Assembly: GCF_053078305.1 (NCBI RefSeq)
Contig: NZ_CP166879.1
Reading direction: 5' to 3' (one strand)
DNA: 64,000 nt
Each line of letters begins with the position of its first letter. Position 1 is the first letter of the stretch. A program made the translations under genes and the position numbers. The notes below the pieces were generated by a model. That model searched no databases. It was not told the DNA's origin and saw only the letters and a list, made by a program, of their open reading frames with translations. This document shows, piece after piece, positions 12,772 to 64,000 of this stretch.

Positions 12772-12858
12772 AAATCCCGACCCTGAGGGGGTCGGGATGA
12801 AACTTGCTTAAGCAAGAAGCACTTAAAAAATTCGTTACACCAGGAAATCTGATGTGTT
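12772..12858 (-). ncRNA. dsrA: DsrA small regulatory RNA (Hfq-dependent; known to activate rpoS and repress hns translation)
   Basis: Minus strand reads AACACATCAGATTTCCTGGTGTAACGAATTTTTTAAGTGCTTCTTGCTTAAGCAAGTTTCATCCCGACCCCCTCAGGGTCGGGATTT, matching DsrA from memory, with terminal hairpin and U-tract. Confidence 0.88.
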
Positions 12859-20737: not shown

Positions 20738-21103
20738 TTATTCATAGCGTCTGCTACGTGCGGGACGAGGTCGGGTGTACCAGGCAATGCTGCCTAACAA
20801 TGCCCCGACCAGAGCCATAAATAAAAATCCGACCAGTGCCCCTAACCACTTTCCCGCGGTAGAGCCTAAATCGCTTTCAAATCCCGACACGGGGGCATCG
20901 GGGATCCGGCTCATCACCCAGATGTAACGCGCCATTGCCCAGACGAAATAGCCACACCATGTATAGAAAGCCCACAATGCCAGTTTGCCGCCAGGGCTGC
21001 GAGAGAGTCTCTCTTCCATCTTTGTAGAACCGTATTCCATTTTGAGATAACCCGGAAAATTCAGACTTAGTACTATTATGTGATAAAAGTCACATTTTTC
21101 CAC
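20738..21103 (-). CDS. yedR: inner membrane protein YedR
   Basis: ORF 20738..21121; probable GTG start at 21103 (121 aa), alternative ATG at 21040; two TM segments. Confidence 0.75.
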   Translation of the reverse strand: MEKCDFYHIIVLSLNFPGYLKMEYGSTKMEERLSRSPGGKLALWAFYTWCGYFVWAMARYIWVMSRIPDAPVSGFESDLGSTAGKWLGALVGFLFMALVGALLGSIAWYTRPRPARSRRYE

Positions 21104-21261
21104 ATTGGATGAGCCAGTCAAGACTCACTCATTTTTTGAACAAATAGATAAATTTTGCGCAACGGCAGTGAATACAGGAAAAATCGTTTTGAGCGATTTT
21201 ATTTATCTTTGATATCGGCTTTATTAATTCATTCAATCAATATATTAGCACTGATTACAAT

Positions 21262-21358
21262 TATACCTTTTTATTATTCTGTGTCATGATGCTTCCGTTA
21301 TTAGCCTTTTATCGTCTTGTTTATATTTTTTGGGCCGGCATGATGCCGGCTTTTTTTT
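21262..21358 (+). ncRNA. candidate small RNA ending in a strong intrinsic terminator (possibly RseX, recalled to lie between yedR and yedS)
   Basis: GCCGGCATGATGCCGGC hairpin plus T8 at 21337-21361 in the AT-rich yedR-yedS intergenic region, no ORF upstream; 5' end not defined. Confidence 0.3.
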
Positions 21359-21669
21359 ATGCCTTCATTAATGTGCGCGTGATCACACCAGGTGTTTGGC
21401 GCAACAATCATTGATACCCCCTATCTTTCCGCTCAACTCATAACATATTGATATACATTTATAATTTTCATGAATATTTATATTTAGAATTCATAATTAT
21501 GAATTATATTAAATAGATTGGAAACATTTTGAAATCTTTTAAATACATTTGTTACATGTAATCCTTAAAATAAAATGAACTTCATAGAATAGTATCCAAA
21601 TGTGCTTTTTTTTGGATAACGGCACTTATTGATATATTCATGAAGATTATAATCACAAGGGAATACATA

Positions 21670-22857
21670 ATGAAAAGAAAAGTTCTGGCAATGCTGGTCC
21701 CGGCGTTATTAGTTGCTGGCGCAGCAAATGCGGCTGAAGTCTATAATAAAGATGGTAATAAACTGGATTTGTACGGAAAAGTAGCGGGCCTGCACTACTT
21801 CTCTGATGATGCTGGCAGCGATGGCGACATGTCATATGCCCGTATCGGTTTCAAAGGTGAAACTCAGATCGCTGACCAATTCACTGGTTATGGTCAGTGG
21901 GAATTTAACATTGGCGCAAACGGTCCTGAAAGCGACAAGGGTAATACCGCAACGCGTCTGGCATTTGCAGGTTTCGGCTTTGGTCAGAATGGTACTTTCG
22001 ACTATGGTCGTAACTACGGTGTCGTATATGACGTAGAAGCATGGACCGATATGCTGCCAGAATTTGGTGGCGATACCTATGCTGGCGCTGACAACTTCAT
22101 GAACGGTCGTGCTAATGGTGTTGCAACCTACCGTAACAATGGCTTCTTTGGTCAGGTCGATGGCCTGAACTTTGCTCTGCAATATCAGGGTAATAATGAA
22201 GATGATGGATTATTCGGTCAGGAAGGTTCTGGTAACGGTAATGGCCGTAAGTTAGCTAAAGAGAACGGCGACGGCTTCGGTATGTCCACTTCCTATGACT
22301 TCGACTTCGGTTTAAGTCTGGGTGCTGCATATTCTAACTCTGACCGTACCGACAATCAGGTTCACAAAGGTACTCATAACACTCGTTATGGAGATCGCTT
22401 CGATGCAACTGCTGGCGGTGAAACAGCAGAAGCATGGACCGTTGGTGCTAAATACGACGCTAATAACGTTTACTTAGCAGCTATGTATGCTGAAACCCGT
22501 AACATGACTGGTTACGGTGATGCTGATGCCATCGCTAACAAAACCCAAAACTTTGAAGTTGTTGCTCAGTATCAGTTCGACTTTGGTCTGCGCCCGTCCA
22601 TCGCTTACCTGCAATCTAAAGGTAAGGATTTAGGCGGTGTAAATAGTGATAACTTCGACAGCCAGGGTAATCATCACTACACCAACAAAGATCTGGTTAA
22701 ATATGTTGATATTGGTATGACCTACTACTTCAACAAAAACATGTCCACCTATGTTGATTACAAAATCAACCTGCTGGACAACGACGACGACTTCTACAAA
22801 GAAAACGGCATCGCTACCGATGATATCGTTGCTGTGGGCTTAGTCTACCAGTTCTAA
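21670..22857 (+). CDS. yedS: OmpC/OmpF-family outer membrane porin YedS, intact
   Basis: ORF 21640..22857; start at [21 protein letters not shown] signal peptide, [16 protein letters not shown] and C-terminal YQF, about 395 aa with no disruption. Confidence 0.88.
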
Positions 22858-22901
22858 TCAGCCAACGCGCCGCGGCGTGTTACTGTAAAACTGAACACTA
22901 G

Positions 22902-22937
22902 CCTGAGTTCGTCCCTCATCGAACTCAGGCTTTTTTA
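22902..22937 (+). terminator. intrinsic terminator downstream of yedS
   Basis: Hairpin cctgagttcgtccctcatcgaactcagg followed by TTTTTT. Confidence 0.7.
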
Positions 22938-23448
22938 TTGGCATTTCATCTCCATCTGCGGCACACGCAATTGCCGAAGCATATCGATACAGCACCTTAG
23001 CCTGCCCCTCCTGGCACAATAACATCAACCAGCTACTCTTCAAGCTAACACCCAAATGCATTTCTTTATGAATTAATCCGTAACAAACACGCTTCCCATA
23101 TAGAAATATTTGCAAAAATAGTGCATGAAATAAGCTTTTTCTCTACCAATCCGCGATATAAATATTCATCAGCACCACAATATTCCACAGCACTAAATCT
23201 CTCCCCGCCGCCCCGTACCTCTGATAATGGTCTAAAATCATTGAGGCCACTTGCGACGACGTTACTCAATAAGGAAAATTTGGCGTGAATAATATTCAAC
23301 ACCAGTGCAGCATCATCATTACATACTTACACCCGCCGACTACAGCTTTCGATATATTGACTCAATTTTCCAGCCTGGTTAAAAATAGCGACCAGCTCAG
23401 TCGCAAATATAGTGACTACCCTAACTAAGCAACAATAAGGAATACACT

Positions 23449-63132: not shown

Positions 63133-63833
63133 CTGCCCGCATCTCACCATGCGGGCTTTTTTTATCCATAAGAAAGCCCCTCCGGAGAGGGGCTGGAGTA
63201 GCGCTATGTACCGTTCATTGCATGATGCCGGGTGCCTCCCGGTGAGTTCAGCCCGGTGCCACCGAACCCGCGTCATTCTCGCTAACGATCATCAGAGACC
63301 ATACCGTACACCAGCCGCCCCTCCGCACAGGGGGATTCATCATGCAGAAATTTTTTAACAAATTCTCAGTCGGGAAGACAACCTTCAACTGACTGAATTG
63401 TGAGCAACATAGCATTTAACGGGGAACCTGTTTTCTGCAGTAAAAAGGCCCACCGGAGCGGACGGGCCTGGAAGGATAGCGGTCATGTGATGCCGGTTTC
63501 CCGGTAACTCAGCACCGGTATCTGAGTCAACGTTTTCTCTACTGGGTCATTTCCGATACGCCCTGCCTGCTGACAGGCTTTCATCACATCTGAAAATATA
63601 GCACCCTGACTGATACTGTAGTACCCAAGGTTCCAGAAACTGTGATGTATCCGGCACAGAAAAGCCCCTCCGGAGAGGGGCTGACGCTGCGTATCTGTAT
63701 CATCATGCGCATGGTGCCGGGTGCCTCCCGGTGAGTTCAGTATCAGCACCTGAACCCGCACAGAAAGGATAAGGGATGTAACCAAACACCTGTCGCTGAT
63801 ATGCCCCTCCGCTCAGGGGGATTCACCATGCCA
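63133..63833. repeat. imperfect direct repeat (two copies, period about 488 bp) of a hairpin-rich element upstream of the esterase gene
   Basis: Shared blocks gcccctccggagaggggc (63176 / 63664), ccgggtgcctcccggtgagttcag (63228 / 63716), cagggggattca(t/c)catgc (63319 / 63806); additional hairpin plus T7 at 63133-63158. Confidence 0.8.
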
Positions 63834-64000
63834 GTTTCTTTTAACAAACTCCCCGCAAATCAGACAACTGTCAACCGTCTGAATTGTGAGACATTTAAAA
63901 TTTTCGGGGCAACAGGAAGACAATCATCACGACACCGGCAACCAGCGACCGGCACCAGATTTAACGTATGTGCACACAACCTGAACCGGCATCAAAAAAC

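Follow-up and report, generated by a model that had tools for sequence, protein, structure and literature searches.

The small RNA gene rseX and an intact yedS porin gene at the drpB-hchA locus of an Escherichia coli other than MG1655

The stretch of Escherichia coli DNA analysed here (the window: 64,000 nucleotides of contig NZ_CP166879.1, RefSeq assembly GCF_053078305.1) carries the known small RNA gene rseX upstream of yedS, a porin gene that is broken in K-12 and undamaged here. Neither is new: the non-coding element is RseX, already described in K-12, and the intact form of yedS is likewise already known. Taken as a whole, the explanation that the window holds the ordinary E. coli drpB-rseX-yedS-hchA locus is very probably correct.

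Results

Layout of the locus

The gene order in the window is dcm, yedJ, drpB (yedR), a 629-bp intergenic region, yedS, hchA and hprS. The features discussed below are the following.

20738-21040, minus strand: drpB (yedR) coding sequence (open reading frame list; NC_000913.3 annotation of drpB, 303 nt)
21256-21261, plus strand: putative rseX -10 hexamer TACAAT, 6 nt 5' of the annotated 5' end (read from the sequence)
21268-21358, plus strand: rseX, gene of a 91-nt Hfq-binding small regulatory RNA (Rfam RF01401; identity to K-12 rseX, b4603)
21296-21318, plus strand: RseX nt 29-51 (CGUUAUUAGCCUUUUAUCGUCUU), predicted target-pairing segment (local duplex search, conservation)
21332-21358, plus strand: rseX intrinsic terminator, 9-bp stem with 6 G-C pairs, 3-nt loop and T8 (terminator scan, fold)
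21359-21669, plus strand: spacer from the rseX terminator to the yedS start, GC 23-34% (composition)
21670-22857, plus strand: yedS, intact general-diffusion porin gene (open reading frame, Pfam, NCBIfam, solved-structure search)
22900-22936, plus strand: yedS intrinsic terminator, 12-bp stem (22900-22931) with 8-nt loop and a T-run to 22936 (terminator scan)

The drpB frame is the 100-aa form, which starts at the ATG formerly called codon 22 and forms the left boundary of the intergenic region; both this start site and the drpB promoter have been mapped (PMC7648144). The intergenic region itself (21041-21669), used elsewhere as a host-informative marker (PMC11267920), is strongly AT-rich, as the preliminary description of this DNA had it: GC content over 21000-21700 is 23-36%, while the flanking genes have about 47-55%. 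The same description had concluded that the host is not MG1655, and this agrees with an identity of 92.7% over 21000-23000 and a different loop allele of the porin. Across the 25 kb around the locus the best complete E. coli genomes reach about 97.4-97.8% identity, and for the yedS segment by itself identity to the pig isolate Res13-Sevr-PER07-33 is 99.8%. The tandem drpB-rseX-porin arrangement is kept in E. albertii, E. whittamii, two further Escherichia species and Citrobacter amalonaticus.

The non-coding element is RseX

Rfam model RF01401 matches 21268-21357 on the plus strand with 97.7 bits (gathering score 50, E=1.4e-13) over model positions 1-94 of 94, and the match was found again in a gathering scan of the whole window. 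The annotated K-12 rseX (b4603; NC_000913.3 2033649-2033739) maps to 21268-21358 with 91 of 91 bases identical and does not map elsewhere. In NC_000913.3 it lies between drpB and the yedS pseudogene, the same position and the same strand relative to yedS as in the window. The earlier suggestion that a hairpin-ended, non-coding element here would be a small RNA is thus confirmed, and so is the placing of RseX between yedR and yedS, for which just such an alignment had been proposed as a check. With bases, flanking genes, strand and terminator all the same, the RNA does not differ from that of K-12; only the genomic background does, in that the downstream yedS is intact in the window. A weak Rfam match to RyhB over the terminator (23.1 bits against a cutoff of 55) reflects terminator similarity only, and that identity was rejected. 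The PGAP-annotated records sampled leave rseX unannotated.

The porin gene is intact

The mechanically called reading frame of yedS runs from 21640 to 22857, but the true start codon is the ATG at 21670. A Shine-Dalgarno sequence (AAGGGA, 21657-21662) precedes it by 7 nt, the nearest public genome is annotated with the same start, and the gene then has 395 codons. The 395-aa precursor begins with a typical Sec signal peptide (residues 1-21, 21670-21732, ending ANA/AE), and its L3 motif PEFGG and C-terminal YQF (...GLVYQF, with terminal Phe) align to the matching positions of OmpK37. The terminator downstream is identical in MG1655 and coincides with the right end (22937) of the region originally singled out.

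The protein matches Pfam Porin_1 (PF00267) with 471.8 bits against a threshold of 23.7 (E=2e-141, profile positions 1-337 of 337) and the NCBIfam 'porin OmpC' subfamily with 540.9 bits against a cutoff of 484; it falls below the NCBIfam equivalog cutoffs for OmpF (445.4 against 583) and PhoE (442.0 against 599). Among solved structures the nearest is OmpK37 (E=2.6e-145), followed by OmpK36 and OmpC, with OmpF much lower. These matches point to a functional-looking general porin of the OmpC/OmpK37 type, which would form a trimer of 16-strand beta-barrels. OmpK37 (PDB 6v78), a quiescent porin of Klebsiella pneumoniae, aligns to YedS from end to end with PEFGG and the C-terminal Phe conserved, but belongs to another genus and another locus, and YedS has longer L4, L5 and L7 loops (mature length 374 aa against 356).

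The exact YedS protein is already public as 'porin OmpC [Escherichia coli]', on 241 contigs. PGAP applies the label 'ompC' because the sequence reaches the cutoff of the OmpC subfamily, which is a subfamily name. That the gene might be ompC proper I considered and rejected on grounds of position: it occupies the yedS locus, whereas true ompC has a place of its own beside micF and rcsD. Genomes have a median of three matching places and carry true ompC at the ompC/micF locus. The window porin is a paralogue of OmpC.

The corresponding K-12 gene (b4496, formerly b1964-b1966, also called 'ompS1'; PMC2731931) has the same locus and flanks and differs very little from the window gene in its signal peptide and N-terminal third. 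It is indeed a pseudogene in MG1655, as the preliminary description said: so it stands in NC_000913.3, and PGAP flags the copy of an MG1655 isolate as 'frameshifted; internal stop'. The first lesion turns CAG into TAG at codon 162 (opposite C22153 of the window) and the second is a 1-nt deletion opposite 22332. Both are absent from the window, where the gene translates without a stop into the Porin_1 protein described above, so that the claim of an uninterrupted OmpC-family porin stands and no frameshift had been overlooked. The window gene is nevertheless not a repaired K-12 allele, a possibility I rejected because its set of surface loops is different: identity is 88.8% at the nucleotide level over the coding sequence but 79% over the central 450 nt, with the differences mainly in the surface loops. 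Within the long (OmpC-like) group the K-12 allele falls on another branch, and it has one loop-7 motif in common with the allele of strain E1, which encodes 397 aa (90.5% nucleotide identity).

Allele diversity and decay at the yedS site

Of 14 complete genomes, sampled so as to be spread out, 11 have an intact porin gene here. The three inactive copies are those of K-12, with the stop and frameshift above, of O157:H7 F7508, with a 1-nt deletion at position 608 of the coding sequence, and of strain 700481, truncated by IS3; six further matches from O157:H7 or related strains fall 1 nt short of the query length, as would be expected of the same deletion. Such independent decay in several lineages indicates that the gene is dispensable at least in some niches.

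The intact proteins at the site range from 352 to 404 aa and are 51% to 100% identical to YedS of the window. Their first 23 residues and both flanks of the alleles are nearly identical, and the short alleles are nearest to OmpK35, PhoE and OmpF, that is, to another porin subfamily than the OmpC/OmpK37-like allele of the window. Rough counts in 5,426 complete genomes, made at an identity of at least 95% over the central roughly 500 nt unless stated otherwise, are as follows.

Window / O157 allele type: 631 genomes (729 at an identity of at least 90%)
K-12-like long alleles, 60-80% identical to the window in the loop region: about 859 genomes
387-aa allele type: 380 genomes
357-aa allele type: 741 genomes
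371-aa allele type: 903 genomes
352-aa allele type: 1,163 genomes, which may include some matches to paralogues

The yedS of the window is of the allele type of O55:H7 and O157:H7, with 98% amino-acid identity to the O55:H7 protein. Copies of this type in E. albertii, E. whittamii and Escherichia sp. E1V33 show 94.7-97.7% identity, and the window gene is nearer to them than to most E. coli alleles. In the literature naming both 'yedS' and 'porin', as far as its accessible text goes, I found no description of this polymorphism.

These observations bear on whether the gene still does anything. The strongest rival to a maintained porin is that yedS is intact here by chance, a permanently silent relic with no current function and heading for decay of the K-12 or O157:H7 kind. 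The independent inactivations in K-12, the O157:H7 lineage and strain 700481 would fit such a relic, as would a promoter region as extremely AT-rich as is typical of H-NS-silenced genes. I nevertheless consider it improbable. Against ten relatives, some as distant as E. albertii and C. amalonaticus, yedS shows dN/dS of 0.05-0.20, which indicates maintenance under purifying selection, and the intact copies in the sampled genomes outnumber the broken ones. A clinical carbapenem-resistant E. coli, another non-K-12 strain, also has an intact, translatable yedS (Warner et al. 2013, AAC 57:1935), and a functional YedS is credited there with affecting carbapenem susceptibility and described as mediating carbapenem entry or resistance, in the wording of the papers that cite that work (PMC11267920, PMC4048246). 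Finally, the proteomic study of an STEC strain mentions detection of a porin '50% homologous to K-12 YedS' (PMC9731836). A maintained porin gene is thus the preferred reading. Like rseX in K-12, it is probably silenced by H-NS. The spacer between the two genes is presumably the yedS promoter and 5' UTR and a target of H-NS, a role that I take from PMC8313858. It holds sigma-70-like sites at 21483-21510 and 21549-21576, in a number not above the count expected by chance from shuffles.

A putative promoter and a strong terminator for rseX

The putative -10 hexamer of rseX is accompanied by a weak -35 (TTCAAT/TCAATC at 21232-21238). Both hexamers are poor matches and went unflagged by a consensus promoter scan of the region, which would fit a weak promoter and weak expression. 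A sigma-70 promoter is supported by 5' mapping (Douchin 2006, as cited in PMC8313858), and RseX is described as a primary transcript from it (PMC8313858).

At the other end of the gene, the terminator stem spans 21332-21352, with the core GCCGGCA/TGCCGGC at 21334-21340 and 21344-21350 around the loop TGA, and is followed by the T8 run at 21351-21358; its centroid energy is -14.6 kcal/mol. The hairpin with T8 that the preliminary description placed at 21337-21361 is therefore a real object, but those coordinates were off, and it starts about 3-5 nt further to the left. A rho-independent terminator with a 3' U-run is the usual 3' module of Hfq-dependent sRNAs. The C. amalonaticus copy has one compensatory G-C to A-U change in the stem, and the region as a whole has six terminator-like sites, where shuffles have 2.2 +/- 1.5. 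MFE folding did not recover the first Rfam hairpin (z-score of the whole-RNA fold, -1.33); that hairpin shows no covariation, its pairs being invariant in the homologues compared, which neither supports nor contradicts it.

A second rival would make rseX the terminated 5' leader of a long yedS transcript, in effect an attenuator, with RseX as the product of premature termination and read-through driving yedS. The two genes do share a strand and are separated by 311 bp that hold no other gene, and the order of the tandem is kept in the other Escherichia species and in C. amalonaticus; the promoter-like sites in the spacer are no more frequent than in shuffles, and in hns mutants 'RseX and surrounding areas' go up together (PMC8313858). 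The rseX terminator is strong, however, and neither the terminator scan nor the fold revealed an alternative, anti-terminator pairing. RseX made from a plasmid that lacks yedS also works in trans on ompA and ompC (PMC7648144, PMC8313858), and K-12 has kept rseX perfectly although its yedS is dead. For these reasons, the strong terminator, the trans action and the conservation in K-12, a leader is highly unlikely, and I prefer to regard rseX as a gene of its own, with yedS separately terminated.

The third rival, a small hydrophobic protein with the hairpin inside its coding sequence, can be dismissed almost outright. An ATG-started, mechanically called reading frame of 42 codons (21286-21414, plus strand) does overlap rseX in the window and in K-12, so the earlier statement that the element contains no open reading frame was literally wrong. 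Translation would have to read through the strong terminator, however; the frame has no Pfam match, and in other E. coli, other Escherichia and C. amalonaticus it has 18-42 codons or is frameshifted, through indels and differences in the length of the T-run, or lacks a start (the last in C. amalonaticus). With the frame so poorly conserved it was rejected as a gene, and in substance the element is non-coding, as had been said.

Predicted action of RseX

RseX is a 91-nt RNA that lowers OmpA and OmpC (PMC7648144); the repression of ompA and ompC depends on Hfq, and fimB and ihfB are repressed as well (PMC8313858). Pairing was predicted with the K-12 leaders of ompC and ompA, because both genes lie outside the window. 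Global RNAduplex comparison of RseX or MicF with leaders of 165-185 nt gave long, loopy duplexes in which known targets did no better than shuffles; since it was uninformative even on known targets, it was replaced by a windowed local duplex search. In this search RseX nt 30-43 pair with the Shine-Dalgarno region of ompC (-14 to -1, -16.4 kcal/mol) and nt 37-50 with that of ompA (-22 to -8, -17.5 kcal/mol). Both pairings are contiguous over 14 bp, at about -15 to 0 in ompC and about -23 to -7 in ompA, and are modestly better than those of shuffled sRNAs (z about -1.4 to -1.6, with 8-10% of shuffles doing at least as well).

The predicted pairing segment is also the quiet part of the molecule: nt 29-49 are invariant in ten distinct homologues, although 13 of the invariant bases were demanded by the pattern that found the six loci outside the E. 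coli collection. These homologues comprise E. coli haplotypes, whose variants were located by synteny, E. albertii, E. whittamii, two further Escherichia species and C. amalonaticus. Variation falls in nt 5-11 and in loop nt 24-28, and E. coli haplotypes differ by up to 8-9% over the whole of the intergenic region. This pattern of conservation supports a function for the predicted segment.

The best account is that rseX is an independent sRNA gene with its own weak sigma-70 promoter and strong intrinsic terminator. Going by the literature on the identical K-12 sequence, the 91-nt RNA should bind Hfq, and its single-stranded nt 29-51 would pair with the ribosome-binding regions of ompC and ompA and so reduce the synthesis of both abundant outer-membrane proteins. 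Northern blots show that H-NS, backed by StpA, keeps the K-12 gene silent, which is why RseX went undetected for two decades (PMC8313858) and is seen only once this silencing is removed.

The porin gene next door gave a different result. No pairing of RseX with the yedS leader rose above shuffles, either in -60 to +30 or in the 270 nt upstream, and I infer that yedS itself is not an RseX target. The 2013 study by Warner et al. reportedly found that MicF regulates YedS. In the present search MicF formed no duplex with the yedS leader of the kind it forms with ompF (z=+0.45; for ompF, the positive control, -20.8 kcal/mol and z=-4.2).

Discussion

What might tie a small RNA that represses porins to the porin gene beside it? 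Two other pairs offer a parallel: in MicC-ompN and in MicF-ompC, too, a porin-repressing sRNA is encoded beside a different porin gene. H-NS represses MicC as well as OmpN, a quiescent porin (PMC5745476). The arrangement is not the same, however, as MicC-ompN and MicF-ompC are divergently transcribed whereas rseX and yedS lie in tandem.

One reading, conceivable but doubtful as a whole, is that rseX and yedS form a 'porin-swap' module with an exchangeable porin cassette, kept in Escherichia and in at least one Citrobacter. Lifting the H-NS silencing of the AT-rich locus would allow RseX to shut down OmpC and OmpA, and YedS, whose leader appears free of complementarity to RseX, would take over from them. 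A single context of signal peptide and promoter might drive exchangeable porin alleles from two subfamilies. As part of the same tentative reading, alleles common to several species suggest long-term balancing or diversifying selection, with phages, colicins, immunity and antibiotics as the possible agents.

What has been found is an sRNA that is already annotated and a porin whose exact protein is in the public databases. The practical value is one of annotation hygiene, given an 'ompC' label on yedS and an rseX missing from the sampled records. Labelled in this way, YedS can be confused with OmpC in automated analyses of porin loss, for example in work on carbapenem resistance, and such analyses can overlook a spare intact porin in a strain. 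Only two aspects might reward further work: whether rseX and yedS are functionally linked, and the unusual diversity of porin alleles at this site. That diversity, together with repeated inactivation, bears on outer-membrane permeability and on the diversity of phage and colicin receptors in natural E. coli.

Porin alleles at the yedS site

When yedS of the window (21670-22857, + strand) is compared with loci L004-L015 and L018-L023 from other genomes, the site appears to behave as if its porin gene were an exchangeable cassette. Within E. coli, the porin encoded between rseX and hchA ranges from 352 to 404 aa and from 51 to 100% identity to the YedS of the window, and codons 1-23 and the flanking sequence on either side are near-invariant among the alleles. 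Two subfamilies occupy the site: the short alleles are OmpK35/PhoE/OmpF-like, and the window and K-12 alleles OmpK37/OmpC-like. Other Escherichia species also contain the window-type allele, at 95-98% identity.

The drpB-yedS intergenic region (window 21041-21669), compared with L005, L013 and L014, occurs as two haplotypes, one ~98-99% and the other ~91-92% identical to the window. Haplotypes and yedS alleles occur in mixed combinations: one identical 352-aa YedS protein is paired with either haplotype, and window-type yedS is also found beside the divergent (~91-92%) one.

Inactivation and annotation of yedS

At least three independent events have inactivated yedS, in K-12, the O157:H7 lineage and strain 700481.

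Lesions in yedS
K-12: TAG and frameshift
O157:H7 lineage: 1-nt deletion, at CDS position 608 in F7508, with six further hits (O157:H7 or related strains) that fit the same lesion; O55:H7 is without the deletion
Strain 700481 (L014): IS3 truncation

In O157:H7 F7508, drpB too carries a frameshift flag in the annotation. Sampled RefSeq records annotated by PGAP label yedS either 'ompC: porin OmpC' or 'porin', and no rseX feature was found in those sampled (L001, L002 and others); among the records sampled, rseX is annotated in the curated NC_000913.3 only.

Other small RNAs and promoter-like sites

Warner et al. (2013) reportedly described regulation of YedS by MicF. A duplex search with K-12 MicF (L016 585-677) against the yedS leader (window 21609-21699), using MicF-ompF as the comparison pair, identified no duplex comparable to MicF-ompF (z=+0.45 versus -4.2), which is at odds with that reported regulation.

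The window also contains other sRNAs.

Other sRNAs in the window
12772-12858, - strand: DsrA sRNA gene (Rfam RF00014, 102.5 bits)
63164-63374, - strand: STnc100 family sRNA, tandem copy (Rfam RF02076, 168 bits)
63654-63860, - strand: STnc100 family sRNA, tandem copy (Rfam RF02076, 134.9 bits)

The top sigma-70-like match in the intergenic region lies on the minus strand at 21287-21260 (ATGACA, 16 nt, TATAAT), where it points towards drpB and overlaps both the putative rseX -10 region and nt 15-20 of RseX. It is kept in every aligned E. coli, and shuffling the intergenic region gives a match as good as this one (11/12) in ~7% of cases. The drpB promoter has been mapped to a different place, between the old GTG-1 and ATG-22 (PMC7648144).

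Regional relatedness

Among 5,426 complete E. coli genomes, none matches the 25 kb of window 9001-34000 above ~97.4-97.8% identity. A YadA-like adhesin and a prophage tail-fibre gene are among the features under the matches to this region. Over the 2-kb yedS segment by itself, a Canadian pig isolate reaches 99.8% identity. Taken together, the two figures show that the strain lies outside the collection and that the region is a mosaic.
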